A DNA stretch of 64,000 bases from Pinctada imbricata (lineage: Eukaryota), in assembly GCA_033119305.1 (NCBI GenBank), contig VSWD01000002.1:9402974-9466973 (forward strand), read 5' to 3'. Position numbers and translations under genes: made by a program. Below are positions 15,166 to 64,000 of this stretch, piece after piece. Under the pieces are notes generated by a model. That model worked only from the letters and a program-made list of their open reading frames with translations, was not told where the DNA came from and searched no databases. Every line of letters begins with the position of its first letter. Within the stretch, counting starts at the first letter, position 1.

Positions 15166-15242
15166 GTATGTTGAGGAAAAATGAAGAGTATCAATTAATT
15201 TAAAAAAAAAAAAGAAATTGAAGACCAAGTAAGTATTGGATA

Positions 15243-15345
15243 TACGCCGAAAACAATTCATTCTTAAAGATATTGGACAGTTTGAGGCCCGCAGGGCCGA
15301 AAACTGTCCAATATCTTTAAGAATGAATTGTTTGAGGCGTAAACC
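15243..15345. repeat. Near-perfect 100-bp palindrome (hairpin arms of about 40 bp around CGCAGG)
   Basis: AAAACAATTCATTCTTAAAGATATTGGACAGTTTGAGGCC / GGCCGAAAACTGTCCAATATCTTTAAGAATGAATTGTTT. Confidence 0.7.
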
Positions 15346-33750: not shown

Positions 33751-34539
33751 CATCAGTAAAGTGAATTTATGCGAAAATAGTTCCAATAAGTACGAATAAA
33801 TAAGTACTTGCTTTCGTACTAAATGCATGGCTAATACAATGAAAATTTAGATAATTAGAATTTCCAAAATGTATGCTTACTTCTTAGCTTTAAAATCAAA
33901 GTGGAACTTGTAGAACATGTCTGGTCCATGCCGCAAATTTATCTACTCCTAATTGATGCTATTGAATTTGAAGACGTTTAACATTCTATCGACGAAAAAC
34001 GATTGACATCTCGATTTGGAAAAAAACGTGCCTTTTTCATGTCTTGCTAAAATTCAGATATAGAAACTGGATTTTGAAATCCTGTACGCCCATTTAACAG
34101 CCTTAAATACCATTTGGTCGACCTAGAAATGTTCCTGTTTATGTTATTGCTTTAATTATTCTCAACCCTTGATTACTCTTGAACATAATTTTATATTTAC
34201 AATTAAAAGGATTCTACATGTAAATCAGAATAGCAATATTCCGTCTTCCCCAGTTTATTGCGTTTTTGTTTCTTAGCTGATACGATACCCCAGGGTATGT
34301 TCCAAATATGAAGATTTCATTGTTAGAGCCAGACGGCTTGCAAGGAAGCTACTTGTTCAGGGTTATATCACTCAACGGCTGAAATATTCTTCGGTCACTA
34401 CGAGGAAATTATAAAAGCATATCAAATCCCCCTTTCCAGAATGATCAGTGACATTCTACATTGTGATTGAATGGCTGTAGTCATCACCAAACAAGACATA
34501 CTCATCTGATCTGTACATCAAAATGTACATAGAAACAAT

Positions 34540-34710: not shown

Positions 34711-34914
34711 CTGAATAATTGTTAGGTACTTCTTTGATGTTTATTTGGTCGACCTAGAAATGTTCCTGTTTATGGTATTGCTTTGCTTATTCTCAACCAT
34801 TGATTACTCTTGAACATGAAATTATATATTAACAATAATGATTCCACAGGTAGATCAGAATCATATTGTTCGTAGATCGACGTCACAAATTTTAGGAAAA
34901 GGCATTTCTTCAAA

Positions 34915-35270
34915 TAAATGAGGGGATCTCTAACAACACCCGATTGCAGTACCAACAGCAAAACCCCAAAACACCCACTGCATAAACACAAAGCAGACAT
35001 ACCAGAAAGAGACGAAAATGGTTCAAGCAGTGCCAAATTACATAGTAACATCAAATACAAATGACTGCACATAAACCAACGAGACCAATGGGTAATCGGT
35101 GCCGACTTAGGACGGCCATCAGCCACGTCAGTAGCAGACGGTGTGGTTATCCTGCTTACGTGCACACAACCCTCCCACTTTTCCGATTACCCAGAGGTCT
35201 CGAAGACTGTACAATTGTTGTGTAAAATGACCTCCTCACTGTAAGATGACCATACAATCAGACAGCATGA
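34915..35270 (+). mobile_element. SINE-like dispersed repeat, family 'F1' (..AACAACACC.GATTG.AG.ACC.ACAGCAAAACCCCAAAACACCCA...CCAATGGG.AA.CGGTGCCGACTTAGGACGGCCATC...TTTTCCGATTACCCAGAGGTCTCGAAGA...)
   Basis: Other copies at 43040-43390 (+), 49340-49800 (-) and 57215-57654 (-). Confidence 0.55.
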
Positions 35271-36094
35271 GGCAGGGGCCCAAGAAACACACAGATGGAT
35301 AAGTAAAAGGATATAAAACATAAGGCGTACGAATCTGATAGATTCATTTGTTTGCTTGGTTGGTTTGTTCTTTAGTTTCTAACATATTAGTTTCGTAGTA
35401 TTCCATTGTTTATCAGATATTCAAACAAATTTTATTGGAAATCAGTAGAAAATCTAGCAGATCTATAAATAATGTATTTTATGTTGCGATTCAACCATAC
35501 CTTCTACTTAAATAATTTTGGCACAATTATACTTTTAATTTTTTTTATATTCTGTCATGACTGTGCTTCATGACATGATCGAACTCTTCAATATTTTAGT
35601 ATCATTTTAAGTTATTTTCTATAGAATGTAGATGAGATATTTATGAGAACGAATATTAAATATTCATGCACCACTCTGCAGGTAATAAGTAAAAGGGTCG
35701 CGGGAGTACTTGGATTCTCTTTTATGCAAACACTAAGAATAAATTAAGCATGTATGAAAACGTTTCTGACGAACTCAAAGCATATCCTGGCTCTCTTAAT
35801 TTGCTTCGTGCTAATACATTATACATTTATTATAGATTTGCCTAATACATTATAGATTTAACTTATACATTATAGATTTACCTAAAATAGCCTTCAAGTT
35901 GGTAAAAAGAAGATTTCCTTAGTTGCATCTTCGAAGAAAAGTTGAGGTCCGCTCTGTTTATCTCTAAAGATAGATTGGGAAACCTGCGCATGCTTGTGTG
36001 ATTCTCCATGGGTATTTCGCTAATTTGTTTTCGGTCCTTTGTTACTTTAAGATAACCTCTCTATGAACATGATGACATTAGTTAAATGAGTTAA

Positions 36095-36245
36095 AGAAGA
36101 TCCTGACGACAATCTTAACAACACTCACAATAGGACACCAAATTGAGCATCGACGGACCCCTTGCAAGCTAGAGGTGGGACCAGGTGCCCGGGGGGAGTA
36201 AGCATCCCCTGTTGGCTAGCCGCACCCAACGTCCATGTTCAAGTC
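36095..36245 (+). mobile_element. SINE-like repeat, family 'F2' (ATCCTGACGACAATCTCAACA...ATTGAGCATCGACGGACCCC..GCAAGCTAGAGGTGGGACCAGGTGCCCGGG.GGAGTAAGCATCCCCTGTTGGCTAGCCGCACCC)
   Basis: Near-identical copies at 46555-46700 and 52365-52470, and a fragment at 62510-62590. Confidence 0.55.
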
Positions 36246-36685
36246 TAGTAAATTGTATAGCGTCACAATTATGTGGAGGAGATATCCACAACAGGATGCA
36301 ACGAAAGCTTAATTATTTCAGAATAGAAAAAAAGGCATGAACTCAATAGTTCAGTTTTAAATGTATTAATTACTTTATTCCTGCTCTGTCGCCTGAAAGA
36401 AACTTTTTTTTGGCACTTATATTAATTTAATCTTTTTTTAAACTTGTCATTCCATCCAAAAATGTTGTCGAAATTAAAGGAGGTTAACATCTTAACATCA
36501 TCCCTCCAATGCTATTTTGAAAAGATTTTATTTGGATATCGATCCTGAATCGATCCTACAGGAAATTTGGAGCCGCGCATTCTCGGAAAAGTAAAGTAAA
36601 TTCACAAATTTAAATTCTGAAAATAAATCCACAGGGCAATTCTGAAATGAATTTTGGCGGCTTATGGAAAACACTTTGATTGGAA

Positions 36686-36729
36686 GCATCACTGATGAGG
36701 ATCTAATATCCGAAACACGTGTCTGGTGC
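36686..36729 (+). ncRNA. Type I hammerhead ribozyme motif (helix I GCAUCA/UGGUGC; CUGAUGA; helix II GGAU-cuaau-AUCC; GAAA; minimal helix III C-acgu-G; GUC cleavage triplet with the predicted cut after 36723)
   Basis: All conserved core nucleotides are present and the three helices pair as drawn by hand; it lies inside a dispersed repeat that recurs with degenerate cores at 36956, 42500 (-), 43468 (-) and 63835. Confidence 0.6.
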
Positions 36730-39549
36730 ATAATTTGGTTTGAAGGTATCTAGATGGAACCCTTCCGTATTATTTCAATGCTTTTCATATATGACATTTT
36801 GAGAATAGATTTCAACTCATTCGAAAATTTCTGTTATCAAAACTTCTTGAAATTTCTATACCGCTGGTCCTGTAGCATCATATTCTACCCATCTTGCTAC
36901 GCCTTTCGGTGAATTTTTGGAAACAACTTTACCACTCTTTGACCATATAACATTGTTTAGACTGAGGATCACTGACGAGGGTTAAGTACTCGAAACGTAC
37001 ATGCTGCAACTTTATCTGTTCTTAAATGATACTATTGAATTTGAAGACGTTTAACATTTTAAAAGTTAATTCTTAGTTTATTGTGCTGGACCCTGATGTA
37101 GCATATATTTTGGATATCAAAGAAAAAATGGTTTCCGACTATGCCAGTATAATTGCAAATCCCAAATAGTGTTGTTATTCGAATTACTAGTGCACAACCC
37201 TCCCATCTGTTAAGTTACCAAGCAGTCCAGTATAATTGTTAAGTATAAAAGCCACCTCATTGTAAGATCCCTCCCTATTAATTTTAGCTTTTCACTTTCA
37301 TTCACTGATAATGATGACGAAAATCAAAATGTGCACCAGACACCCTCTGACCTTACCTGATATTGATGTTGAGTTTGGTAGCATTGTTATTACGTCTACC
37401 TACATGAACTGTAAAATATTGTATTGGAAAAGCTGTCACTGTGCGACCAACAGAAAACTATAGTTATATGACGTTCAAAAATGTATATTTCATAATATTT
37501 TAATGTATATTATATTATAATATTATATAAGTAATTTGTATCAACCAATCAGATTGCTAGCTAACGGTTCAATATTTTACGATATTGCACAGCTGTGCGC
37601 CTCGCTTTTGATTTACATCTAAAATTGGGAGGAAATGAATGAATTACTCACGATTGAGTAACGATTCCAATAAATCATATTAAGTGCACGTGTGTATATG
37701 AAAATCTGAATTTGAAAATGACTGTACATTGATGTCATTAAGCCAGTTTAGGACACTGCATGTAGATATACTATGCAGCTATGTACATTATGTCTATAAT
37801 AAACATTTCCTCCAATTTTACGATCGACTCCCTATATTCCTGGAATATTATGAATTTGAAACCTTTCTCTATGTAAAAGAAAGTTGTAACAGTATCAGCC
37901 AATGTAAGTTTCAATATCAAAGGAACATTTAAGCTCTCATTTGCTGAAATAAGCCGCTCAGTTCACAGTTTACATTCTTTGAAATTGATCTGTACAAGGA
38001 ACGTTATCGTATGTCATAGCCGTGGGTGAATATACAAGTACTGAATGACAGAGATCTGTCGAGCATTTGTCTTTTGATTTTCAGAAATCTGACATTCCTG
38101 TAAACGGCCATGTTAGAGGTAAGTTGATAGGCTTGAATACATAAAAGAGGGTTGCTAATTAGCATGTCTAGAATATGAAAGGAAGCATTTTTTTAATTGA
38201 AATTCAATTTATGAGTCATTGAAGTGTTCCACATCGAAACCGTCTTGAACATAATTTCAAGCCAATTTTAATGCAATAGACACGTGTTTCGGATAGTAAA
38301 TCCTCATCAACGGTACTAGTACTTAATGCCAAAGTGACACAGTCAAATAATTTCAGTAGCGTGTTAAACGTTTTCAAATTCATTAGCATCATTTTAGCTT
38401 TTAAATTAACAGCATGGACCAGACATGCACGTTTCGGGTAATAAGTTATGTTTTATCTTTTTTATTTCCATCTCTGTCTAGTTTTCATTCCGTCAAATTC
38501 AAATGAATACTAGTAATATTTAGTCTGTCAGCTTGAAGATGAAGAATTTATACTCTCCAAGTTGTTGTTATCTACTATACAATTAGGCCGAGGTTAACCA
38601 ATGCCTGACCAGGTCTGTAAAGTCACGAGTAGACCGAAATCGAAAGTCAGTAACTGCTTTATTAAATTATCAGGATTTTATGAACATTTGCATTGTAATG
38701 ATACGCGAAGTCAAAGATCAGGAATTATTACCGATTTTGCTTATTTCTGATTGATGGAGACGCTGTTTGATAGAGTGTACCTCAGAGTTAGTTGACCGCT
38801 TACGCTCCAAAGCGGTCTATTCGGGATTAGCGCGTGCGGGACCAGCGCGTGCGTTGATTTTTGTAGTGTTAGATCTTTGCCTAAGTACATGTAATAATAT
38901 TCCATATTTTTGAGAGTTTGAATAAAAATGTCTTGATGTACATTGATAAAGTAATATGGATATAGGATGGATCAGAATAGCTAAATTATTCAGAAAATTT
39001 AAAAAGAGCTGGCGAGCGGCAGCGAGCCAAATCATATTTTGAAATCGACCGAAAAATTGTAGATGGATGGTAAAAAATGTTGCTATTTTAAACAATGTTA
39101 ATGCATCATAGAATATTGTGATAGGGGGGGGGGGGTGAAAGGGGGGGGGGGCACAAACATGGTTGTGCCCCCGCTTTTCAAAGTGGGAAGGCTGCCCCCT
39201 TCTCCTACGCCCTTGTTGGTGTATACTACTTTGGCAGTGTATAAATGTGTTGACCAGTAGCCTGTTTCACAAAAATACTTTCGAACAATTTCAGGAATTT
39301 TCGTAACGCTTGATTGCTCAGTTCTACTTGCAGAAATTTGCGAAGTTTTGTTTCTGAATGTACCGGTATATTTAGTACGTAGAAATGATACAAGAATACT
39401 TTATATATATTACATATATACAGCCTGAACAGAAAACACTCTGAACCCTATGTTAAATGACGAAATTCCATCAAATTTTCGTAAGAATTTTTGTGAATGA
39501 ATGACAAATATGGATAATGACCATATCCCTGTCTACAGTACAAAATCGA

Positions 39550-40039: not shown

Positions 40040-41578
40040 CAAGTTAAAAGTCATGTTTGTAAAATGCCCCCCTGCCCCTTCTGTGATTAAAGTCTGTCAA
40101 AACTTTATACTTGCATTGATACAACCTATGGGGGTATAAAGTAACAGTTTCATTTCAATATGTAACTCCACTCAAGAGATATTGAACAGAAACCCTGAAG
40201 TTTTGGTATTTTTCAAAGTGCAAGGGGCATAACTCTGTCCAAATTTTTTTGATCGGACCTAAATATGAACTTGACCTAGATTTTCATTTGATGTGTCTGT
40301 ATACAAAATTTCATTTTTATATGTAACTCCACTCAAGAGATATTGAACGGAAACCCTGAAATTTTGGTATTTTTCGAAGTGCAAGGGGCATTACTCTGTC
40401 AAAATTTTGTTGATTGGACCCAAATAAAAACTTGACCTAGATTGTCATTTGATGTATCCATATACAAAATTTCATTTCAATATGTAACTCCACTCAAGAG
40501 ATATTGAACGGAAACCCTGAAATTTTGGGTTTTTTCGAAGTGCAAGGGGCATTACTCTGTCAAAATTTTGTTGATTGGACCCAAAGAAAAACTTGACCTA
40601 GATTGTCATTTGATGTATCCGTATACAAAATTTCATTTCAATATGTAACTCAACTCAAGAGATATTGAACGGAAACCCTGAAATTTTGGTTTTTTTTCGA
40701 AGTGCAAGGGGCATAACTCTGTCCAAATTTTTTCGATCGGACCTTAATACGAACTTGACCTGGATTTTCATTTGATGTGTCTGTATACAAAATTTCATTT
40801 CAATATGTAACTCCATTCAAGAGATAATGAACGGAAACCCTGAAATTTTGGTATTTTTTGAAGTGCAAGGGGCATAACTCTGTCAAAATTTTTTTGATCG
40901 GACCCAAATATGAACTTGACCTAAATTTTTGTTTGATGTGACTGTATACAAAATTTCATTTCAATATGTGAATCCACTCAAGAGATATTGAACGGAAACC
41001 CTGAAATTTTGGTATTTTTCGAAGTGCAAGGGGCATAACTCTGTCAAAATTTTTTCGATCGGACCTTAATACGAACTTGACCTGGATTTTCATTTGATGT
41101 GTCTGTATACAAAATTTCATTTCAATATGTAACTCCATTCAAGAGATATTGAACGGAAACCCTGAAATTTTGGTATTTTTCGAAATGCAAGGGGCATAAC
41201 TCTGTCCAAATTTTTTTGATCGGACCCAAATATGAACTTGACCTAGATTTTTGTTTGATGTGTCTGTATACAAAATTTCATTTCAATATGTAACTCCATT
41301 CAAGAGATATTGAACGGAAACCCTGAAATTTTGGTATTTTTCGAAATGCAAGGGGCATAACTCTGTCAAAATTTTTTGATCGGACCCAAATGTGAACTTG
41401 ACCTAGATTTTTGTTTGATGTGTCTGTATACCAAATTTCATTTCAATATGTGAATCCATTCCAGAGATATTGAACGGAAACTGATGTCGCGGACCGACCG
41501 ACAGACCGACCGACCGACCGACCGACAGCGGCAAACCTATATGTCCCCTCTTCTTCGAAGGGGGGCATAAAAAGTAAA
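40040..41578 (+). mobile_element. Pearl/Helentron-like element: about 9 tandem 161-bp satellite monomers, then a (GACC)n microsatellite, then terminal hairpin TATATGTCCCCTC..GAAGGGGGGCATA; inverted copy of 7290-8545
   Basis: Monomer is the reverse complement of the 7413-8400 monomer; the 5' end at 40060 contains ATGCCCCCC, which is inverted relative to the 3' hairpin. Confidence 0.6.
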
Positions 41579-43039
41579 TGTGATAATATTACATGATTGG
41601 CACCCAGGATTGAGCTTTTAATTTAGAAAAAAATAATTCAATTAAGTGCTGAGATCAATGTCAATATGACTATAGAAAATGGTATGCAATGTAAACAGTA
41701 AACTTCTCGATAATATAAATGAAATAATGCAATGACAAAAGGAAAATTATCAAGAATTGAATATGGTTGAAGGGAAGGGAGTGGCAAAAAAAAAAAAGTT
41801 CATCGTGCTTGTTGTTGAGATTTTCAATTTAAAAAAAAGTGATGATATCACCTAGCTGGATTTTGATTGGTAGTTTTTATAAGAGACCTTTCCTGATTGG
41901 TCGAATTCCTGCAAATATAATTTATCGAGGGGAATTTCACAACAAGGTTACAATGTAAACATAAAGCAGTGAACAATTCTAAGAATAACTCTAAACATCT
42001 GGTATGACAGTATAGACCTTGTATAGGCAGATAATAGGTGCATTCATAATGTACAACAGTACATAAATAATTTACAGGAAATTCATCAGACATAAATAAA
42101 ATTATGAACAAAAATATCGTTCTATGCTAAAAACAAATTAGCTCGGTGCCCCTTAGTTTGATTTCCATATTTTAAAATGCATTAACAATGGGCTCTTATG
42201 AATGCTTTTCATACCTTTATACGCTACAGTCATTTTCAACTATCCTTGTCTTCTGTTAGACTAACACAATTATCTGGGCAAAACTCGGGGAAAGTACCGG
42301 TATGCATGCATACCCCATAATTTTCTTTTCATATTATTGGACATTGGGTAAAGATAATACAGGTTTCAAATATATATATAATATATATGTTTTAAAACTG
42401 TTTCTACAATGTAAAAAATGTAAAATTTTGAAATTTTCCATAGGGTGTAACATGTTAAGGTCATTGAACAGATAAATTTGCAGCAAGGACCAGACATGCA
42501 CGTTTCGGGCACTTAAGCCCCGTCAGTGATCCTCAATCTGAACGATGTAATGTGGCCAAAGAGTGTGAAAATTATTATGACCGGAAATGTACCGAAAGAC
42601 GTAGCATGATGGATGGGACATGATGCTACAGGACCAATGTTTTTGAAATTTCAAGAAATCTGTACAATCTAGGGTCTATTTGAAACGTTTTTATAAAAAG
42701 TGCAAAGGTGATAAGCACGAAAAATTCCCCCCCAAAAAATGTTATCATAGGGTGATTACAAGCTCTCGCGATCAAAGGTACGATGTACCTTAAAGGGGTT
42801 GAACAAGGTTTTTTTTTTATTTTGTTCTTAAAATTGTTTCCTTTTTTTAAATATCTGTGTTATTGTCTCCGTCTTTTTATGTACTTTTCGTTTTTATTTC
42901 TCAAACAAATTATAATCCTTTCAATGGTGATTTTTTGATCTGATTTCGGGTTTTGTCTCACAATGAATATGTCTAATGCATGGGGATCTATCTTGGCAAA
43001 TACAATAAAACCCTATAAATGGTAAACGTCTTCAAACAA

Positions 43040-43390
43040 AGGAGGGGATCTCCAACAACACCAGATTGTAGCACCCACAGCAAAACCCCAAAACACCCAA
43101 TGCAAAAACACAAAGCAGACAAGCACAGAAAGAGACGTGTAAGGGACAAGGAACGTCAACGCACAACACAGAAACATCAAACACGAAGGACTACACATAA
43201 ACCAACGAGACCAATGGGCAACCGGTGCCGACTTAGGACGGCCATCTGCCACGGAAATAGCTGAAGGTATGGTTATCCTGGATTAAGTGCGCACAACCCT
43301 CCAACTTTTCCGATTACCCAGAGGTCTCGAAGAACGCACAATTGTGGTGTAAAACAACCTCCTCACTGTCAGATGACCACACACAAACAA
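43040..43390 (+). mobile_element. SINE-like repeat F1 copy, followed immediately (43430-43600) by a degenerate hammerhead-family repeat
   Basis: Alignment by eye with the 34915, 49340 (reverse complement) and 57215 (reverse complement) copies. Confidence 0.5.
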
Positions 43391-43989
43391 GACCGCAAAA
43401 CGCAGGGTACAAATTCAATAGCATCATTTAAGAACAGATAAATTTGCAGCATGGACAAGGCATGCACGTTTTGGGTACTTGACCCTCGTCAGTGACACTC
43501 AATCTAAACAATGTAATAAGGCCAAAGAGTGTGAATGTTATTATGTCCAAAAATGTACCGAAAGACGTAGCAGAATGAGTAGGATACGATGCTATAGGAC
43601 AAATTAATTACATCAGTTTTCAAATTTGTAACATAATAAAACAGGTTGTGTATCTAATATTTGTCTAATTGCTCTCTAATAACTTCTAGTCTGTATGAAT
43701 CTATGATATAGGTAAAGCATACTCCAGGAAATGTTCTGTAACCTACCTCCCCGACACAAATTTAGGAAGGGTAAGGTAGGGTATCAAGTAAAAAATCCTC
43801 CTTGAAATCCCATAGGGGAGGGGATTACATACTATTTCTGGAATAGCCTATTCCTCATATGTCATAATTGCCTACATGTTTTTACGCCTAATGTCAATGC
43901 CTTTCTTCTCTATGTAGGCAGATTGTTCTTGATAATGCAATATATGGAAAATTCCTTTGCCTTTTTAATCGAGAGGGGAAAACTTATAT

Positions 43990-46283: not shown

Positions 46284-47199
46284 CATTCTAATGCAATCTA
46301 TATGTTTGTGTATATGAGGCGAAATGTGACGTAAGCAACGTCAAAGCCTAGCATGTTCTCGTTTTACCGTCGTAACTAAGGAGCAAATAACCAACGAAAA
46401 TCGACGTTAAAGCGACGTTGCATTAGAATACAAAATTTACGAAGTCAATTATTAAAAATCGTATTTAATGCTTTTATTTTAGGTAAAAGTGTTTATAGAG
46501 GTCTGCATTCTCTAGGTTTTATATTTTACCCCAAAACACTCAGTAATGGAATAAAAGATATCCTGACGATAATCTCAACAGCTTCACAATAGAGCACAGG
46601 ATTGAGCATCGACGGCCCCTTAGCAAGCTAGAGGTGGGACCAGGTGCCCGTGAGGAGTAAGCATCCCCTGTTGGCTAGCCGCACCCGCACACTCAGTATC
46701 CATGGTACATTCTTCAAAGAGGGAATACTAGGGATAACGCTTACCGAGCAAAACATGATATTTATGTCATAGATTTCATTTAACAATGCTACTGAATCGA
46801 CCCTACATAAATTTTGAGCCGCACACTCTCTGCAAAATAAATGCTAAAAAATTCTAGACATAAAACCAGGGGGTGCTACTGAAATACATTTGCCTGTGTC
46901 AGAAAATCACTTCGGCATTTAATAGTGCTGATGAGGATTTACCATCCATGGTGCATTGAAATCGGTTTGATATGTTCTTCAAGAAGGTCAAGAGTTGGAA
47001 CATTTCCGTATTATCCAATACTAAAACGTATGCATAACAAATATTGATAATGACCATATCCCTGTATATAGCACAAAATCGAAAATTCAGAAAATCAGAA
47101 ACCGAAGGCATACAAAATCATGAAATATTGTAATCATAAATTATGACATGTCTTTATACATAATTTTTAATAGTAACTATTGAATTATGCTTGGATGAT

Positions 47200-49339: not shown

Positions 49340-49800
49340 TGAGCTCGCCGCGGCAGAGAACGGATTGTATTACGTACATTCACATATTCATCTGTGTTGC
49401 TTGGGCCTTTGCGTTTTGCGGTCTTGTTTGTTTGTGATCATTTGACAGTGAGGAGGTTGTTTTACACCACAATTGTACGTTCTTCGAGACCTCTGGGTAA
49501 TCAGAAAGGAAAAGTGGGAATGTTGTGCGCACGAAATCCAGGATAACCACACCTTCTGCCACTTCCGTGGCAGATGGCCGTCCTAAGTCGGCACCGGTTG
49601 TCCATTGGTCTCGTTGGTTTATGTGTAGTCCTTTGTGTTTGATGTTTCTGTGTTGTGTGTTGACGTTTCTTGTCCCTTTTGCGTCTCTTTCTGTGCTTGT
49701 CTGCTTTGTGTTTTTGCATTGGGTGTTTTGGGGTTTTGCTGTGGGTGCTGCAACCTGGTGTTGTTGGAGATCCCCTCCTTTGTCTTGAATGAAATAAATG
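49340..49800 (-). mobile_element. Full-length (about 460 bp) SINE-like F1 copy; the 200 bp immediately upstream (49128-49335) duplicates 44625-44835
   Basis: Reverse complement aligns with 43040-43390, and its tail aligns with 57225-57330. Confidence 0.55.
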
Positions 49801-51431
49801 AAGAAATAATTTATAATTATGCTATAATTCATAATTTCTACAAAGAATTATTTACTTAATTTTGATACAGAATTCATGATTAAATGCCTCTGGCAAATAA
49901 GGAAGAAAACAAAAGTATAGATACATAACAACTTGATTTATATCATCATCACCATGATCAATATAGAAAAACGCGATATGATATATTATGTAACCCTAAA
50001 AGGTTTTCTTGTAGTTTCATTAGACGCGACCAATAGTGATGCGATATGAACAATGAAAGGTTTAAAAGTCATTTATTCCACAAACTGACCGAATGGGCAT
50101 TTGTAAAATGATGTGCCTTCGTCTCATTGGTGCACATTTCCTCTGATGTTGATTTCCTATAAATAATCGATCATATGGGAGGTATATTCATTCAGATTAT
50201 GTTCAATCCAACCTCACTGAGTTTGTACTTTTACCTATTCTCTGGACGGTGTGATATATTCATGTATATTGAGGTATGTATTTTTATGAAAGTTTTAAAA
50301 ATGTCTCATTTTTTTTCTAAAACAAATTGTCGCAATATTTCTATCCTACTTTTTAGAATGTTATACTCCTTTTTTGCGATTCGAGATTTTTGTTTGTTAA
50401 CTAACCTTATTTGCATTTTTATAATTTACAATTTACATTACATTATTTTACATTTTTACAATTAACAATATACATTATTTCACATTTTTACATTTTACTT
50501 ATAATTATTTTACATTTTTACAATTTACAATTCACATTATTTAATATTTCTACAATTTACTCGTAAATTAGCCTTGCCTTCTCGACTTTGAGACTGAATA
50601 ACTATTGGGTACTTTCATGTTTATCTGGACTAGAAAAATTTCTAAATGTGAAAAAGGCTAACATTAAAGTCTCTGTATTGATCGTCAGAAAGACACCTCG
50701 ACAATAATATTCTGTCATATGCTCCATTTCGTCCACTTATCAATGACAAATATGGAAAATGACCATATTTCATTGTCGACAGGGTAGAGACTTAACATGG
50801 CTAAAGGGAATTACTATAAAAAATGAGAACCTTTTGAAGTGTAATAAGGTAAAAAGACAATCCTTATGCCTGGAATATATGAAAACGGATGAGATTCCAA
50901 TGAGAGCGGTATTTCTGTAAATTGTTTCAGTATAATCAGAGGAGATTCTCTTTTTTCTATTCTACTAGATTTTAGACGACTCATCTTTAACATGCATAAA
51001 ATACCGAAATTACAGATTCTATCAAAGGCCCAGCTGCACAATAATCTTGATCGTCCGGTCGTACTTACGGCACGATTTGAGCATCAGAAATGGAATTACA
51101 AACAGCTAAAAATCCAAGAGCCTTTTTCTCATTATACAAAATACGCATAGACTCGGTACAATTTTTCAAGAGTCACATACTTTGCACCTAGAACATTCAC
51201 ATAAAAGGACCATCTATGATAAATATCGTTCTTACACTGGATTCTATTGAGGTTGTTTCTTAGATAGTGGTTATTGTCTCCGTCATCCCGTGTCGTCTAC
51301 TTACAAAATGTTCTCAAATTTCTAAAAACTGGGTCCTGCAGCATCATATCCCAGTCATCTTGCTACGTATTTCGGTATATATTGGACATATATTTCACAG
51401 ATTTTAGCCATATTTCATTGTTTTGGATTGA

Positions 51432-51477
51432 GGATCACTGACGAGGGTTTAGTACCCGAAACGTGCATGTCTGGTCC
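51432..51477 (+). ncRNA. Type I hammerhead ribozyme motif (GGAUCA CUGACGA GGGU-uuagu-ACCC GAAA C-gugcau-G UC | UGGUCC), unit 1 of a tandem dimer
   Basis: Core and helices read by hand; it differs from the 51577 copy only in the helix II loop. Confidence 0.6.
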
Positions 51478-51576
51478 ATGCTGTTATTGTAATCTATCTG
51501 CTTTTTAATGATGCTAATGGATTAGAAGACGTTTAACATTTCGCACTCTTTGGTCATATGATATTGTTTAGATTGA

Positions 51577-51622
51577 GGATCACTGACGAGGGTTAAGTAC
51601 CCGAAACGTGCATGTCTGGTCC
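51577..51622 (+). ncRNA. Type I hammerhead ribozyme motif, unit 2 (helix II GGGU-uaagu-ACCC); 145 bp downstream of unit 1 in the same orientation
   Basis: Core CUGACGA...GAAA...GUC and helix I 6 bp (GGAUCA/UGGUCC). Confidence 0.6.
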
Positions 51623-52725
51623 ATGCTGCCAATTTATTTTTTCTTAAATGATGCTATTGAATTTGAAGACGTAAAACATTCACATATATATATGCACCAA
51701 TGATATATTTCGTTCTTAAACTGAGCTGAGGTTGTTTACTAGATAGTGTTTTCCTTCTCGTATTTCTGTTATGTTGTCATTGTCTTCGCCACCTCGTCTC
51801 GTCTGAATTTGTTCCGCTTTTTTCTCTGTTGGAAATGTCCTCCCCATATTTAGTTTTGATTTATGAATTCAAGATTTTGTATGGCATGCCTATTGGATTA
51901 AGTATTCCACTTTCATTTATTAATTTGACCCGTACATAACCCAAATTCCCCCTACGTTGGTCTCTTCGTTATGCTTAGGTGTCATCCTGTGTAATGTGGT
52001 TGTGTTCCATTGGTGAATAATTTATGTTCGAATGAGAATTGATTCCGTTTAGAACATAATTAGTTGACAGAATATAATGATGAAAACTTACATTATATAG
52101 GCAGTTTTAAGGCGTCAAAATATATCATGTCGCAAATTTGAGCTAATAGCCAATGAAATAACACATCATATATATGACGGATATTGAAAAGACATCCAGC
52201 AACATAGATTGAACTGTTCACATCGGAAAATACCTGCAGAAAAGCGAAAGAAAGGACTGGATCTATAACAAGACTCGGTTACAGTACCTACAGCAACACA
52301 CCAAAAACAACCCATGTATAAACACAACTAGAGTTAAAATGCACAGCAGTGAGATAAATAAGATCATGACGACAATCTCAACAGCACTTACAATAGAGCA
52401 CGAAATTGAGCATCGACGGACCCCCAGCAAGCTAGAGGTGGGACCAGGTGCCCGGGAGGAATAAGCAAGATACGCGAAAGGGACAAGGAACACCAACGCA
52501 CGCCATAGAAATATGAAACACAAATACGGCATAAAAAGAAGCATATCACAAAGGACAACAAGACTTCACATGAACCAACGGGACGAATGTTCAACCGTTG
52601 CCGACTAAGGACGGCCATCTGTATATAAACAATTATCGAATAAGGCATATCTTTAACATACGTGTAAAAAGTAAATTAGAGTCATGGTTTCTTTTCAGAT
52701 GACTTGATGAACTATATCCCACAAA

Positions 52726-52947
52726 ATGCAGAAACACCCAGTCCCAGACCTTATCCTCCTCTTTCTACTTGTGAGCTCGTCCAGCGGGAAGGATCCATTA
52801 TACATAGGGGGATTTTTCCCGATGCAGGATGGAGCGTGGGATGGTTCCGGTATATTACCGGCAGCACAGATGGCCATAGAAGATGTTAATGCATACCCTC
52901 ATATACTACCTGACCATGAACTCCATCTAGTCTGGAATAATAGCATG
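52726..52947 (+). CDS. GABBR1: GABA-B receptor subunit 1-like gene, first coding exon (signal peptide MQKHPVPDLILLFLLVSSSSG, then KDPLYIGGFFPMQDGAWDGSGILPAAQMAIEDVNAYPHILPDHELHLVWNNSM)
   Basis: From memory, this aligns with GABBR1 '..[50 protein letters not shown]'; donor ATG|GTAGGA at 52948. Confidence 0.7.
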
Positions 52948-53490
52948 GTAGGAAAATCAAATCAGACATTATTGTGCCTAAAAAAAGGGACATTATTGCT
53001 TAGTTTCTGTTCTTCATAGAATTGACGTCACAAATTCCTAAAAAAAAGGGAATATGACGTCATGACTAGTTATTACAGGAAACTTTTAAATAGATAAATG
53101 TAGCATACGTTATTTAAATTTTGCAACGCACGAAGAATGCATTAATTAATCTAAGGAAAATTGTAACATAAAGACGTTGCAAAAAGGTACCTTTTATTTG
53201 AAAGTTTATTTTCATTAGAGGTATTTGTTTCGATAGTGATGAAATATAGATTGAAATTTAAACAGGCAAATGACAAAAAAAAAAACTACCAAATGAACAG
53301 AAATGAAAGGATTCCAATACGACACCATTTGATAGCTTTTTCAAAAAGTTTTACATAACGAAATATTTTTTATACCTCTGATACGTTATGCACACGATAC
53401 GATACGATACGTATCACGATATTTGCTTTCGGTACAATTCGTATAAAAATTTATCGGTTTTTTTTTACCTCTGAATCATTAAATTTGCAG

Positions 53491-54224: not shown

Positions 54225-54916
54225 GTAAATAAATTATAAATTGTGTTGTTTAACATATGATTTGATTTTTAAAATAATTAAATGATATCTGGAATCCCCT
54301 CCTTATCGTGCTACATTGTTTCAATAATTTCCAAGCATTACCAATTCCCTCGAAATGTTCTATAGAAGGAAATTGTCCATCGTTAAGCTAACACGCGCGT
54401 ATATTCCTATAAAGCGGTACACTATTTAACAAGCTGAGCCACCTAGCTGTAATAAGTGGATTCAAACTTTACCATGATTCCTTGAGGGGTTATTAGACCT
54501 GTTTTTACATCTATTTTCACAAAAAGACGAAGTTGCTCCTCTACTTTCGTTTTCAATTTCATCCGCATCGAATGATTTTAAAATTCGATCTCGAAATTAA
54601 AGAGGGCGATTTTTTTATAAAATAAATTTGATCAGAGAAAAACGGAAGCGGAAAATCCGACGAACGAAATATCAGTTTGGTGTGGCCTAACGGGAAAAAT
54701 TCCATGATATGTTCTTGAATGATGTTATTGAATTTGAAGACGTTTAACATTATCGAAACAAAGGGCAACACTATATGTATGAATAATCAACACAGAAATA
54801 ATTATCTATATGTATATTGAAGAGGATTACAGAGAAAAATTCAAATAGGATGTTAAGATCGACATCATGTTTGTCTAAAGTAAACGGGAAACGATATGGA
54901 AGCTATTGACTTGTAG

Positions 54917-56519: not shown

Positions 56520-57214
56520 ATTGTCATAGCGCGCCGTCCGTCGTCCGTCGTTGTCGTCCGTCCGGCGTAAACTTTTAACATTTTCGACATCTCCTCTGCA
56601 ATTGCTGCATGGAATATCACCGAACCTTACAGGAAGGAAGTACTCAAGGTCCTCTACCAAGTTTGGGTTTTTCATGCCGAACGGTCAACAAATATGGCCA
56701 CCTAGGGCTCTGATTGGCTGACACATTTTCGACATCTCCTCTGCAACCGCTGCACAGAATTTCATGAAACTTTACAGGAAATAAGTAGTCAAGGTCCTCT
56801 ACCAAATTTGTTTTTTTTTTGTGCCGATCGGTCAACAAATATGGCCGCCGGGGGCTCTGATTGGCTGACACATTTTCGACATCTCCTCTGCAACCGCTGC
56901 ACAGAATTTCATGAAACTTTACAGGAAGGAAGTACTCAAGGTCCTCTACCAAGTTTGTGTTTTTTTTTCTTTGTGCCGATTGGTCAACAAATATGGCCGC
57001 CGAGGGCTCTGATTGGCTGACACATTTTCGACATCTCCTCTGCAACCGCTGCACAGAATTTCATGAAACTTTACAGGAAGGAAGTACTCAAGGTCCTCTA
57101 CCAAGTTTGTGTTTTTTTTTTTTTGTGCCGATTGGTCAACAAATATGGCCGCCGAGGGCTCTGATTGGCTGACACATTTTCGACATCTCCTCTGCAACCG
57201 CTGCACAGAATTTC

Positions 57215-57654
57215 ATGAAACTTTACAAACCGGCAGAGCACGGACTGTATTACGCATGCCCTCTTTTTATATCCATTTACATATTCATCTGTGTCTCTGG
57301 GGCCTCTGCGTTTCGCGGTCTTGTTTGTGTGATGTCATCTTACAGTGAGGAGGTTGTTTTACACCACATTTGTACGTTCTTCGAGACCTCTGGGTAATTG
57401 GAGAAGTGAGAGGGTTGTGCGCACGTAATCCAGGATAACCACACCATTTGCTACTTGCGTGACAGATGGCCGTCCAAAGTCGGCACCGGTTACCCATTGG
57501 TCTCGTCGGTTTATGTGTAGTCTTTTGTGTTTGATGTTTACATGTCGTGTGTCTCTTTTCCGTCTCGTGCTGTACTCGTCTTTTGTGTTTTTGCATCGGG
57601 TGTTTTGGTGTTTTACTGTTGATGCTGCAACGGGGTCTTGTTGGAGATCTCCTC
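57215..57654 (-). mobile_element. SINE-like F1 element inserted into a 150-bp repeat unit, with about 6 bp TTTACA duplicated at both junctions
   Basis: Unit sequence ..GAAACTTTACAGGAAGG.. is split into ..AACTTTACAAaccggcagag[element]cttctTTTTACAAGAAGGAAG.. Confidence 0.5.
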
Positions 57655-60209
57655 CCTTCTTTTTACAAGAAGGAAGTACTCAAGGTCTTCTACCAAGTTT
57701 GGGTTTTTCGTGCCGATCGTTCAACAAATATGGCCGCCGAGGGCTCTGATTGGCTGATACATTTTCGACATCTCCTCTGCAACCGCTGCACAGAATGTCA
57801 TGAAACTTTACAGGAAGGAAGTACTCAAGGTCCTCTACCAAGTTTGTGTTTTTCGTGCCGATCGTTCAACAAATATGGCCGCCGAGGGCTCTGATTGGCT
57901 GATACATTTTCGACATCTCCTCTGCAACCGCTGCACAGAATTTCATGAAACTTTACAGGAAGGAAGTACTCAAAGTCCTCTACCAAGTTTGTGTTTTTTG
58001 TGCCGATCGGTCAACAAATATGGCTGCCGAGGGCTCTGATTGGCTGATACATTTTCGACATCTCCTCTGCAACCGCTGCACAGAATTTCATGAAACTTTA
58101 CAGGAAGGAAGTATTCAAGGTCCTCCAACAAGTTTGAGTTTTTCGTGCCGATCGGTCAACAAATATGGCCGCCGAGTGCTCTTATTTGCTTCTCTGCAAA
58201 AAAACCACTGCACAGATTTTCATGAAACTTTACAGGAAGAAAGTACTCAAGGTCTTCCACCAAGATTGTGTATTTTGTGCTGATCGGTCAACAAATATGG
58301 CCGCCGAGGACTCTGATTGGATGACACATTTTCGAAATCTCTTCTGCAACCATTGCACAGAATTTCACGAAACCTTGCAGCAAGCAAGTACATAAGGTCC
58401 TCTGCCAAGTTTGTGTTTTTCTTGTCGATAGGTCAACAAATATGGCTGTCAAGGGCTTTGATCTGTAGAAGTATTATTTGTGACTTTTAACCCTTTGTCT
58501 GCAACTCAGGTGAGCGATGTGGCCCCCTTGGGCGCCTCTTGTTATAAGAAGTTAATTTGTGAGAATTCTTTATTCCACAATTGAATTTTATTCTGCTTTA
58601 ATACTGCAGGAAGCGAAGGAAAAACTACAATGACATCACAGTATTCTAATCTTCCTCAATGTAATGGAACATAAAAATGAAGAAGAAAAAATGAAAAAAA
58701 TGAAAAAGAAATGGAAAAGGAAAAAAAAAAAAGGAAAAAAGAAAAAGAAAAGAAAAGAGGAACATATCTCAAATATGAACTGATAAACATAACTCTTTAT
58801 TAGAGAAAACGAATTCAAATTCATTTTAAATAGAACGTTGTCCGGTCTCTCTTGAACAGTTCCAGAAAACGGCATGCATGTCTGTAATCGATCTTTATAT
58901 TTAGCCTTGAATTGATGGATATCATTTTCAGAGATTAGGGCTACAAAGAAGGGCTTAGATTCTTTAATGTATTATATCATGCGATGATCAGCAACATCTA
59001 ACGACAAAGAAAAAGGCGGACATTAAAGGGGGATATCAAAAATATTTTCAGTATTTCTTCCGTAATATTTTCAATCAAAATGACACCATTACGACAGATC
59101 ACAATGTGATTCTATTGATTATCAACGTAATATGCATGGCAATTAACATGATTAACTCAAATTTGAAATTAGTCAATCGGGATTACCGCCTATTACATAT
59201 TTCATCCATTACTTCGTTCATTTTTATAGAAACTTGAAAAAGAGAATGTTAATTCCTCGTGAATAAAATGCAAAATTACATCGCGTTTTCTTTCATTCAA
59301 GGTTTTTGTTCACAGGCTCAAGTCGCAAAATGTGATTCTTTCACTTGAAACAGTATCTATTTTCAAGCCTAATGACATCTTTAACTTTGGCGTATCAAAA
59401 TATTCTTAAGACTCGTCTCATTGTTTGAGATACGGGATTAATGTCTATTCAATACATTCCTTTCTTTTTATTCTGGGTTTAGTCCGTCAAGGTTCAAGTC
59501 AGGTAATATACTTACATAATAATGCTTCATAATAAGAAATTCTAAGGAAACAAGGTCAAGGAGTAAATAAATAGAAGTTAAACAAAAATATTTTTCAAGA
59601 TTAGTCTGAAATATTTATGTCCTACACAAAGGGATGGTACACAGGGACTTATCGCGCTTCTCAGTTGCTTAATGTACTCTTGGTTATTAGCCCATAATTC
59701 AAAAAGCAACCGGGAAGCGCGATAAGCCCCCGTGGGATGGAAATATCTCCATCCGACTTGACCGCTATGAGAGAAGCATCGCAATAATTTCCATAGATAT
59801 GGTGACAACCTCATTAACACAGAGATAATGACAAAACCCAGACAACTGGCATGTGAAACTCGAGATACCGTCACTGAAATCAAATACTAGGAAGTTATAA
59901 ATTTTTGCTGAGCAAAGAGATTTCTGTTTTATTAAGGATACGTAGATGATCAAACAGTCGTTTTATGCAACTTATTTACATCAAAGATGATCAAGGAAGA
60001 ATTTTTTTCCATTATGACAAGCTGAGTAAAATAGCTTGAGAGGCAAAAAGATGTATCGTCATGGAAAATCTACAGAATCATAAATAAACAGAGATTTCTT
60101 TGTTACTGAATTCGATCTAGATTATTTTGACCCCACCCCCACCCTCCGATGAAAAGGAAGTTCTAAATTTTATGTTTTCTTCCAGTTTGTGTTAATTTTG
60201 CTTATTAGT

Positions 60210-60780
60210 CCCCTATCGGCTCGCCGGAGGGGACTTATAGTTTCCACCCCGTATGTCTGTCTGTCCGTCACACTTTAGTTTTGCAGACTTTTTTCGCTGT
60301 CGTTGCATATATTCATAACTCATTTTGGAATATCTCAGTGTGATACAGATCAAGTATGAGTTTTGTCCCGATTGACCTATGCTTACAAGAGGTATGGCCC
60401 TTGGACTTAACAAATGTTATGAAATTCTCAGTTTTCCGGACTTTTCTTCCATGGCATTGCAGATATTGAAATGATATTTTATATGTGAATACATCTTAGT
60501 GTTATACAGATCAAATTCGAGTTTGGTTTTAATTGACCCATTATTACAGGAGTTATACCCTTGCACTTAACAAATTGTTTGAAATTCTGAGTTTTCCGAT
60601 CTTTTTTCTCCATGTTATTGCAGATACTGAAAAAATTATACGTGAATACATCTCAGATTAAGTTCGATTTTTTTTTTCGATTGACCACATTTGACAGGAA
60701 TTATTGTCCCTGGACTTAGCAAATTTCATGAAATTTACAGTTTCCGGACTTTTCTTGGCTGTTGTAGATTACAAATATGG
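60210..60780 (-). mobile_element. Pearl-like element: hairpin AGTCCCCTATCGGCTCGCCGGAGGGGACT, (GTCT/GTCC)n tract, then about 3 tandem 150-190-bp units; related units also at 61200-61470
   Basis: Direct reading; the leader matches the 22852 and 2190 leaders. Confidence 0.45.
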
Positions 60781-60990: not shown

Positions 60991-62809
60991 TTCGGTTACT
61001 TCTATTTTGGAAGATACAAAGTATCATCTTTGGTTGGACGATACAAATGGTCTATGACAGAATATCATTCACCATTCTGGAGAGTGGGACATCATAGTGT
61101 ATGACGAGTTCCCCATATCGACCGTAGAACTTCCTCAGTGACGATGTTAGTCGGTCACAAACGTATCCCTGACTGAGAAGCTTATCTGCAAGACGCCTAG
61201 CTCTCAGAATAAAATGTGTATATTTAGTATTGCTCTGGCATATAGAGCTGAGTTTTGGTATGTACATAGATACTGATGTTGATATTGAGCTGATTTTGGG
61301 TATGTAGATACATTATAGTATGATATACATTAAGTTGAAGTTTGGTTTTAGTTACCTGTTCTTACAAAAGGTGTGGCCTCTTAGGAAATTTCATGAGATT
61401 TTCTGTTTTCCGGACCTTTTATAATACACATATTGAACTTATGTTGATATGGGATTCATCTTTTGGTGTAAGTACAGGTCAAGGCAGAGTTGCAGGACAT
61501 GGATTAATGCCGGTAGGGGACTTATATCGCTTGTGATTCATTTATTTATTTCCTTTGTTTGCACTTTTTTTATTTATTCATGTATTTATTTGATTTGTTT
61601 TTGGTTTCCAAACATATGAAGAATTGTCATATTTTTGAAGCATGATGAAGTATGATCAAGAAAGCCCATCTTTCATTCATTTGCAAAAATAATGTCCCTT
61701 TGAAATTTGTTCGTGTTTTGTAGTTGAACAGCTCATTATTGCGATGGATCCTTTCATCTCTTCAAATAAACTTCTAAACCATAATCTGGATTTGTAATGA
61801 AAACGGTTTAGCGATTTATTATCACAAATACCAAATTATTATAGAAATAACACAGATAAAACATGAGTTTAATTGTTTAAAATTGTTAATTTCAAATGCA
61901 ATAAACATTTCGTTTCAAATCTAGATGATATTACAGAGATGCACAGATCAACAAGAACGCTAACGTTTCACGCTTATCAATTGACTACTCTTACAAAGAT
62001 GAGCATTTGAATTGTGCAAAAGCGTAAATCCGATAACAAAGGCACTTAATACATTTTAAAATTAGCTGAAAATTCTATGAAATATTGATAATTTTTATTA
62101 TAAGGACGAAAAAAAAACATAATAAATAATTTATATTCGGGTTTAATCCATTTCTTACATTCAAAGTGTTATTACTATAAACTTTGTTATGCACAAAGAA
62201 GATCTCAGTTTGTAGCCCGGCATCATATCAATCAATTCTTACTATTACCAAGCATAGCTACTTCACAAATGTGTAACCAAAAAGTAAGAAAATAGGCCGT
62301 TATTAACACAAAAAATAATGTAAATATATGTCAAATGGACATTCGAAAGTTTGTGCTCTTTTGGCTGAAGCAAGATCATGATCAGTGAATTGAGAAGTGA
62401 AACCTAATTTCAGACCACATCAGAATCTAGTCTTCTCTGAAGAGATCTGGACAGAACCTGTCATAGAGTCCTGTAATTATTTACTGTTGTACTATGTGTA
62501 TTAGTAATTAGCAAGCTAGAGGTGGGACCAGCTGCCCGGGAGGAGTAAGCATCCCCTGTTTGGATAGCCGCAACCGCCGTCGATGTTCACGCAGGAAAGT
62601 AAAGATATCTAAAATACATGCGCTGCCTGAGGTTATGTCTATATAGAAAGTGCTATGGCGACCATGTCAGGGAAAGACATTCAAAACACTTACTGTCAAA
62701 CCCCTCGTAGAGAATTGTCTTTCAGAAATAACAATATGCAACACGATTAAAAAATTAATTCAACATTGTGAAATTAATTAAAGAAAATTATTTTTCTCAT
62801 TGTTGACAG

Positions 62810-63544: not shown

Positions 63545-63712
63545 CAGCTCTCCTGGGTGTTTCATCCAAACAGGAGACGCTGACTCTCCCCGGGCACCTG
63601 GTCTCACTTCGTAATCTTGTTTATTCCGAGTTTCGCAACCGTTCCAATGGAAATTCCAATTATTTAACCTTGCCTTCTCGACTTTGAGTTTGAATAACTG
63701 ATAGGTACTTCT
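63545..63712 (-). mobile_element. SINE-like repeat copy in GABBR intron 5, followed at 63830-63880 by a degenerate hammerhead-family repeat
   Basis: Reverse complement aligns with 47200-47360. Confidence 0.55.
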
Positions 63713-64000
63713 GACCCTACAGAAATTAGCCGCATACTTTCTGTAAAGTAAATGCTGGCTCAAATTTCGATAATAAAAATAAAACTAGAGTGCGCTACAG
63801 AAATGAATTTTGGCGGCTTATGTAAAACACTTTGGCTGGAAGCATCACTGATGAGGATTTGATATCTTAAACACGTATCTGGTGCATAATAAATTGGTTG
63901 GAAATTTCCTTCAGTTGGAGCCCTTCCGTAGTATTCTTTCATGTTTATATTTTACAATAGAATATATCAAAACTTAAAATATATCACTTCTTATCATAAC

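Follow-up and report, generated by a model that had tools for sequence, protein, structure and literature searches.

Hammerhead motifs and the repeats that carry them

The stretch of Pinctada imbricata DNA studied here (GenBank assembly GCA_033119305.1, contig VSWD01000002.1, positions 9,402,974 to 9,466,973 of the forward strand) is 64,000 nucleotides long and is called the window below, all coordinates being those of the window itself. It contains two members of a short interspersed repeat family, family a, which are joined head-to-tail and each carry a candidate type I hammerhead ribozyme. The first hammerhead, a1, occupies 51432-51477 on the forward strand and reads GGAUCA CUGACGA GGGU UUAGU ACCC GAAAC GUGCAU GUC UGGUCC, while the second, a2, at 51577-51622 on the same strand, is the same 46-nt motif except for one base of loop 2 (T51450 versus A51595). 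The spacing from start to start is 145, a 78-nt block was reported by a repeat finder as recurring at that same spacing, and the two GUC triplets end at 51471 and 51616, which places the predicted cleavage sites, after C51471 in a1 and after C51616 in a2, 145 nt apart as well.

The elements of the hammerhead can be followed along a1: helix I pairs 51432-51437 with 51472-51477 (6 bp, GGAUCA/UGGUCC, one G-U pair), the core CUGACGA lies at 51438-51444, helix II pairs 51445-51448 with 51454-51457 (4 bp, with the G10.1-C11.1 pair), GAAA follows at 51458-51461, and helix III consists of 2 bp, A-U and C-G, around the loop GUGCAU. The catalytic core (C3 U4 G5 A6 N7 G8 A9, G12 A13 A14, the A15.1-U16.1 pair and H17) is complete in a1, in a2 and in a third motif at 36686-36729, which belongs to a sister family, and in all three helix I is open and helices II and III are closed by loops, the type I layout. 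A preliminary description of this DNA had proposed two motifs in the same orientation 145 bp apart, with every invariant hammerhead nucleotide in place, with helices of 6, 4 and 2 bp and with differences solely in the helix II loop; all of this is borne out, the last point within the 46-nt motif. A tentative upper stem of helix I can also be read directly from the sequence and the alignment, UGGAUU (51424-51429) with AAUCUA (51491-51496) for a1 and UAGAUU (51569-51574) with AAUUUA (51631-51636) for a2, and mussel Mg353 has the analogous pair GGAUUU/AAAUUU (PMC7229834); about 0.5 such stems are expected by chance, which makes these stems weak evidence.

Blastn of the region against the window showed that family a is dispersed, with at least 8 copies. 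Together with a multiple alignment, it delimits copy A1 as a full-length member of about 238 bp (51304-51540, forward strand) with the 3' end ...GAAGACGTTTAACATT, 51304-51541 matching 36838-37059 and 51316-51483 matching 42651-42481, and copy A2 as a 5'-truncated member of about 140 bp (51541-51680, forward strand) that follows A1 head-to-tail. The head-to-tail arrangement claimed in the preliminary description therefore stands, but its 145-bp repeat unit does not: the units measure about 238 and 140 bp, and the 145-nt spacing is an accident of the A1-A2 join and not the unit length of the family. Tandem Repeats Finder, run on the window, did not call the hammerhead dimer. The join falls at AACATT (51535-51540), which resembles the internal AACATTCACAC of another family member, copy C, and because AACATT also occurs inside the element, a join via microhomology is suggested. 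The flanks of A2 are 86% identical to copy C (at 43.4 kb), 84% to copy B (at 36.9 kb) and 72% to A1, and A1 is about 70-73% identical to every other a-copy; since the A2 flanks are nearer to distant copies than to A1, the pair is not a local duplication.

The full or nearly full a-copies are A1, 36838-37059, 42657-42415 (reverse strand) and 43604-43410 (reverse strand), and the 5'-truncated ones are A2, 38441-38362 (reverse strand), 33915-33988 and 54707-54751. Copy D (42415-42657, reverse strand) has a degenerate hammerhead with A9->G and a helix II mismatch, which scores 23.4 bits with the independent model described in the next section. The hammerhead of copy C (43410-43604, reverse strand) is degenerate as well, with G12->A and GUC->GCC, and the 3' end of this copy is broken by another repeat, a member of a family of about 380 bp that abuts and truncates it at 43407-43410. 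Copy F (33915-33988, forward strand) is 5'-truncated within the hammerhead and copy H (54707-54751, forward strand) retains the 3' terminal 45 bp only, the common 3' end being intact in both. Altogether, 6 a-copies share the 3' end ...GAAGACGTTTAACATT (in copy E, at 38362, it appears as ...AACAC), the 5' ends vary, and there is no poly(A).

The sister family, b, has a length of about 290 bp and copies at 36552-36843, 63713-64000, 46755-47022 and 38398-38200 (reverse strand), among which the hammerhead is intact only at 36686-36729 (forward strand; GCAUCA CUGAUGA GGAU CUAAU AUCC GAAAC ACGU GUC UGGUGC). This copy is part of composite B (36552-37059, forward strand), in which the b-element 36552-36843 is followed head-to-tail by the a-element 36838-37059, whose hammerhead has lost its cleavage site through a deletion. 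Composite E (38200-38441, reverse strand) joins a 5'-truncated a (38441-38362) to a 5'-truncated b (38398-38200) with an inactive hammerhead (C3->U), and it is inverted relative to composite B and lies 1.2 kb away from it. The copy at 63713-64000 (copy G, forward strand), which continues past the window end, has a degenerate hammerhead at 63842-63885 (28.2 bits with the independent model), and the copy at 46755-47022 (forward strand) has lost the GAAAC...GUC segment of the hammerhead by deletion.

The A1-A2 pair is itself flanked by a direct repeat. The left arm, segment X (51186-51314, forward strand), is preceded by a remnant of 11-18 nt that resembles the tail of family a, and the right arm, X' (51669-51815, forward strand), starts within the A2 tail. 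The two arms are about 73% identical with a 24-nt indel, lie at a spacing of about 484, are each preceded by an AACATT-CACATA junction and are found nowhere else in the window. Arms of this length and divergence do not fit a simple target-site duplication, and candidate further a-like units outside X and X' had scores within the shuffle range.

Assignment to type I hammerheads

A strict descriptor, which demands the core, a 6-bp helix I, a 4-bp helix II and the 15.2-16.2 pair, found 3 matches in the window (both strands) and none in 300 dinucleotide shuffles; a looser motif pattern gave 3 matches, against 0.96 expected, at the same three sites. We also built an independent covariance model, trained only on three published self-cleaving retrozyme hammerheads of 44-46 nt, those of mussel Mg353, coral Amil224 and axolotl Ax353, whose clones are printed in a supplement by Cervera & de la Pena (2020; PMC7229834), and searched both strands of the whole window with filters off. 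The top three matches were 36686-36729 (41.3 bits, E=3.7e-10), a2 (34.1 bits, E=6.4e-8) and a1 (34.0 bits, E=6.7e-8), and the next-ranked ones were mutated copies of the same repeat families, at 28.2, 23.4, 18.1, 14.4 and 14.3 bits. One stray match, at 15272-15312, is a foldback hairpin.

When the three motifs of the window and the three published ones were placed in a gap-free structural alignment (a padded alignment), 98.6% of cells held standard pairs, and sliding the 3' partners in this six-sequence alignment dropped pairing to 24-45%. In this small sample of 6 sequences, 7 of the 12 pairs were changed on both sides, a covariation score that none of 500 shuffles reached. Compensatory changes also separate the two families of the window, with G-C to C-G in helix I and G-C to A-U in helix II of b relative to a. 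Because of the independent-model scores, the covariation and these compensatory changes, we accept the three motifs as type I hammerheads, with catalysis predicted, despite their sub-threshold scores in Rfam. Scans of metagenomes, prokaryote genomes and viral contigs with ribozyme or tail patterns gave no matches, and the exact ribozyme strings had no match in the literature searched.

The preliminary description had also proposed selection on the ribozyme over its flanks. A1 and A2 are identical at 45 of 46 ribozyme positions and at 74 of 103 flank positions (Fisher p=1e-4), so that the ribozyme must have been under purifying selection in the lineages that yielded A1 and A2. The proposal is thus supported, though for the family rather than for this locus; copy C compared with A2 shows 87% identity in the hammerhead and 86% in the flank, an equal decay that is consistent with neutral change.

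Predicted activity, spread and competing explanations

We consider it likely that the locus consists of two a-family members joined head-to-tail, each with a type I hammerhead, that belong to the non-LTR (lacking long terminal repeats) retrozyme class and combine predicted cleavage with a Penelope-type spread. Family a would then be a short (about 240 bp), non-coding, AT-rich interspersed repeat from the hammerhead-bearing class of non-autonomous animal retroelements. In a transcript that crosses both copies, the helix III segments ACGUGCAUGU are self-complementary and can pair with each other into a shared 10-bp helix III and so form a double hammerhead. If Mg-dependent self-cleavage then took place behind C51471 and C51616, the product would be an RNA of 145 nt bearing a 5'-OH and a 2',3'-cyclic phosphate. 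This predicted RNA (51472-51616, forward strand) would run from the A1 tail through the truncated 5' part of A2 into hammerhead a2, most of which it would include, with GUC at both ends. It could be closed into a circle by a tRNA ligase of the RtcB type, as has been published for the mussel and axolotl non-LTR retrozymes (PMC7229834). The family itself would have spread by target-primed reverse transcription, driven by an autonomous Penelope-like element at a genomic site outside the window.

The dimer folding that the preliminary description had put forward as a check was supported. In cofolds of two 46-mers the double hammerhead was the minimum-energy structure (-33.3 kcal/mol for a, -24.9 kcal/mol for b), because helix III with its loop is self-complementary in both families, ACGUGCAUGU in a and ACACGUGU in b. 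In a 191-nt tandem transcript the enforced double hammerhead (-45.2 kcal/mol) was 14 kcal/mol better than two single hammerheads (-31.2 kcal/mol). The folding of a1 and a2 agrees with what has been described for the canonical type I hammerheads of metazoans, which have 6 bp in helix I, 4 bp in helix II, 1-2 bp with a palindromic loop in helix III and activity as dimers in tandem repeats (PMC4209133). The further claim that a minimal helix III needs a dimer holds in part: the cofold favours the double hammerhead, but a mussel ribozyme that shares this architecture cleaves even in a monomeric repeat, with a rate of about 0.1 per minute, and a 2-bp helix III is regarded as the more stable, invertebrate-like form (PMC7229834). 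Since the mussel ribozyme cleaves in this way, the tandem dimer may be helpful for cleavage and is not necessarily required.

The anatomy of the copies supports the view that the wider family acts like a non-autonomous retroelement. Penelope-like insertions are marked by heavy 5' truncation, by partial tandems, by truncated copies that lie inverted next to each other and by non-autonomous derivatives that share 3' ends (PMC8557442), and the a and b copies show a common 3' end, 5' truncation, A1-A2, b-a and a-b joins, the inversion between composites B and E, and no poly(A). It is the fixed 3' end, the variable 5' truncation, the lack of poly(A) and the head-to-tail or inverted joins that point to target-primed reverse transcription of Penelope type, and retrozymes have been argued to derive from Penelope-like elements (bioRxiv 10.64898/2026.07.22.740005). 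The elements have a GC content of 0.36-0.38, no open reading frame (ORF) and no long terminal repeat (LTR) structure, and are thus non-coding like non-LTR retrozymes. A short interspersed element derived from a tRNA was considered and rejected, as ARAGORN found no tRNA-like 5' head, nor any tRNA-like sequence in the window.

More speculatively, and at rather low odds in our estimate, both families could spread through linear transcripts whose 3' end is fixed, by target-primed reverse transcription of Penelope type and not by rolling-circle copying, head-to-tail landing then creating chimeric cassettes with two ribozymes. If this were true, the present locus would be such a cassette, giving a 145-nt circle below the 170-400 nt of the 2020 survey, and the circular RNA would arise as a side effect of insertion topology and would not be the replicative intermediate.

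Several results weigh against the assignment to retrozymes with predicted cleavage. A whole-window Rfam scan at gathering thresholds gave no hit and a scan of 51300-51750 (451 nt) at E<=10 returned no hammerhead, while a1, a2 and the 36686 motif scored 16.5, 16.5 and 26.3 bits with RF00163 (Hammerhead_1), below its gathering score of 34, so that the Infernal check named in the preliminary description, RF00163 scores above threshold, formally failed for both copies. The match showed up solely in searches of 58-nt slices; there, RF00163 was the best Rfam family for all three motifs, with alignments spanning positions 1-45 of the 45 of the model (E=3.6e-5 for 36686-36729), and its consensus helix III is a loop-less ACGcgCGU, the 6-nt loop of the a motifs being aligned as an insertion. 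Given the 34 bits (E about 6e-8) of the independent model, we judge the RF00163 threshold too strict as a test of refutation. The folding energies include unfavourable ones: as a monomer, motif a has a hammerhead fold of -8.2 kcal/mol against an alternative minimum of -11.3, and the unconstrained minimum of the 191-nt tandem transcript is -48.6 against -45.2 kcal/mol for the double hammerhead. The 145-nt circle, with a minimum free energy of -26.0 kcal/mol and 59% of its bases paired, has z=-0.24 relative to shuffles, other hypothetical circles (the full a unit, X plus a, the b unit and the b-to-a interval) have z from +0.05 to +1.6, and the 211-nt tandem region has z=0.08, with no excess stability. 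Published retrozyme circles are highly self-paired (PMC7229834), and the hypothesis of a rod-like circle is unsupported here, the hypothetical circles being 56-62% paired overall. The label retrozyme-like given in the preliminary description consequently fits in architecture (type I, non-coding, GC below 50%, no LTR) and does not fit in the self-pairing of the circles. No reverse-transcriptase-like ORF of at least 140 amino acids was found in the window, for which no six-frame Pfam sweep for reverse transcriptase remnants was made, and a partner element, if any, would therefore lie elsewhere in the genome. Finally, there are only two units at the locus, most copies of the family in the window are solitary and decayed, and no target-site duplications were recognised.

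Some of these results would also be expected if the motifs were inert relics, intact merely by lesser decay, with no transcription over both copies and no cleaved or circular RNA. Of the 8 a and b hammerheads in the window, 5 have been hit by inactivating changes or by deletions, the predicted RNAs have no excess structure, the hammerhead fold is not the minimum-energy structure, and copy C has decayed equally in ribozyme and flank. We nevertheless regard this explanation as unlikely, since the A1 and A2 flanks differ by 28% and the ribozymes at 1 of 46 positions (p=1e-4), and the pairing of a and b is preserved by compensatory changes, both families retaining a self-complementary helix III loop; the ribozyme conservation between A1 and A2 together with the compensation between a and b shows that the ribozyme was under selection, at any rate in the lineages from which these copies came. 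Alternatively, the repeats might be pieces of terminal repeats (pLTRs) that belonged to autonomous Penelope-like elements, and not a separate non-autonomous family. Minimal-helix-III hammerheads reside in such terminal repeats (PMC4209133), and the copies here show features typical of Penelope-like elements, namely 5' truncation, partial tandems and inverted neighbours (PMC8557442). However, several copies begin at a common 5' position and stop at a common 3' one, at a distance of about 240 bp in a and about 290 bp in b, and are bordered by unrelated sequence, the window has no reverse-transcriptase-like ORF of the size given above, and the ribozyme is of the canonical 6-bp/4-bp form and not of the minimal Schistosoma form (helix II 7-8 bp, helix I 4-5 bp), all of which makes pLTR fragments improbable, more so than relics. 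A chance match to the consensus in an ordinary AT-rich duplication would agree with the absence of an Rfam hit at the gathering score and with the expectation of about one loose motif per window, but it is effectively refuted by the strict descriptor (0 of 300 shuffles), by the independent model (E about 6e-8 over the whole window) and by the strong covariation with published ribozymes, and a second family of the window has a covarying hammerhead.

The retrozyme assignment that we favour can be placed among known systems, of which the closest are the invertebrate non-LTR retrozymes, notably that of the mussel, followed by the Penelope-associated hammerhead repeats. Non-LTR retrozymes have type I hammerheads in short (150-450 bp) head-to-tail repeats with GC below 50% and without LTR, primer-binding site (PBS) or polypurine tract (PPT) (PMC7229834). 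Those of Mytilus galloprovincialis (Mg353), Acropora millepora and axolotl (PMC7229834) resemble the repeats described here in being short, AT-rich and non-coding, with one type I hammerhead per unit and a head-to-tail arrangement, and the Mg353 ribozyme nearly superimposes on ours, with a 6-bp helix I ending in UCA/UGG, a 4-bp helix II, a 5-nt loop 2 and GAAAC-palindrome-GUC. A homology of the flanks to Mg353 could not be demonstrated: blastn matched only the a and b copies and, with the ribozyme removed, similarity was mostly within the shuffle range. The differences lie in the head-to-tail repeats, here a single two-unit a join at 145-bp spacing with unequal units (238 and 140 bp) besides the b-a and a-b joins, in the mostly solitary, 5'-truncated copies with a fixed 3' end, in the circles, which are not highly self-paired, and in the 145-nt unit, which is below the 170-400 nt range (PMC7229834). 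The hammerheads of Penelope-like terminal repeats and their derivatives (PMC4209133; PMC8557442; bioRxiv 10.64898/2026.07.22.740005) share with ours the dimerisable minimal helix III, the 5' truncation, the tandem and inverted joins and the lack of poly(A), and differ in that the present ribozyme is the canonical 6/4 form and not the minimal variant and that no reverse transcriptase or GIY-YIG ORF was seen in the window. Plant LTR retrozymes have type III hammerheads in LTRs of about 350 bp, with a PBS and a PPT and circles of 600-1000 nt (PMC4918200); they share the pair of hammerheads that brackets an RNA which is excised and circularised (here as a prediction), and their type III fold, LTRs, PBS, PPT and large circles are all absent from the present locus.

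The arrangement is already well described in animals, and the locus is a real but ordinary example of it. It enlarges a well-documented class by one animal locus, which has two covarying subfamilies of the ribozyme. What makes it of some, if modest, value is how the copies are built, with fixed 3' ends, graded 5' truncation and head-to-tail or inverted joins, the marks of Penelope-type retrotransposition, since this bears on the mobilisation of hammerhead repeats in animals, a question of current interest. It further illustrates that the Rfam threshold for type I hammerheads misses retrozyme hammerheads that look bona fide, a point of relevance to automated annotation. The classical type I hammerheads are those of newt satellite 2, Schistosoma Sm-alpha and the cave-cricket pDo500; they share with ours the type I form, the very short helix III and the double hammerhead as the active form in multimeric transcripts (predicted here), whereas the present locus is without a long satellite array and its RF00163 scores are below the gathering score.

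Surroundings in the window

The window is eukaryotic in character and satellite-rich, with about 35% GC. About 1.1 kb downstream of the ribozymes and on the same strand, an ORF at 52726-53019, which has a hydrophobic leader and a start codon, matches ANF_receptor weakly (E=0.0017), and we take it to resemble the first coding exon of a receptor of the GABA-B type. Exons related to it on Logan/ENA contigs show 62-68% amino acid identity and have only the exon in common, not the upstream region.

A 1270-amino-acid open frame at 11391-15203 (forward strand) contains heptads like those of the RNA polymerase II C-terminal domain (CTD; SPAYSPTSPAYSPTSPAY) and six 47-amino-acid tandem repeats with a motif similar to the histone H3 tail (KQLATKAARKSAPxxGGV / LATKAARKAAPGAGGV), beside which lie acidic and serine-rich runs. 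The frame ends in a long arginine/serine-rich tail and has no Pfam domain, its database matches coming only via the CTD-like heptads. About 50 nt past its stop codon, at 15251-15333 (forward strand), a perfect inverted repeat of about 30 bp surrounds a GC-rich mini-hairpin (GAGGCCCGCAGGGCCGAAAA) and gives a weak, spurious match (16 bits) to the hammerhead model.

Two tandem arrays, at 56578-58462 and 8776-9551, repeat every 145 and 141 bp (12.9 and 5.5 copies), and their unit contains GGCCGCCGAGGGCTCTGATTGGCTGA; the 145-bp array period is unrelated to the hammerhead repeat, and the shared number 145 is a coincidence. The satellite arrays at 40148-41481, 7398-8250 and 60332-60656 have a period of 161 bp, with 323 and 484 bp as higher-order periods, and those at 7.4 kb and 40 kb are apparently mutual reverse complements, as judged by their consensus units. 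The window starts with 55 copies of a 27-bp tandem repeat (1-1485, 96% identity). The repeat family of about 380 bp that truncates copy C has members at 43029-43407, 49410-49789 (reverse strand), 34907-35277 and 57306-57662 (reverse strand), which are 83-93% identical, and an abundant interspersed repeat is present at 36085-36241, 46545-46686, 52350-52467, 62511-62589 and 63554-63712, within a few hundred base pairs of several a and b copies.

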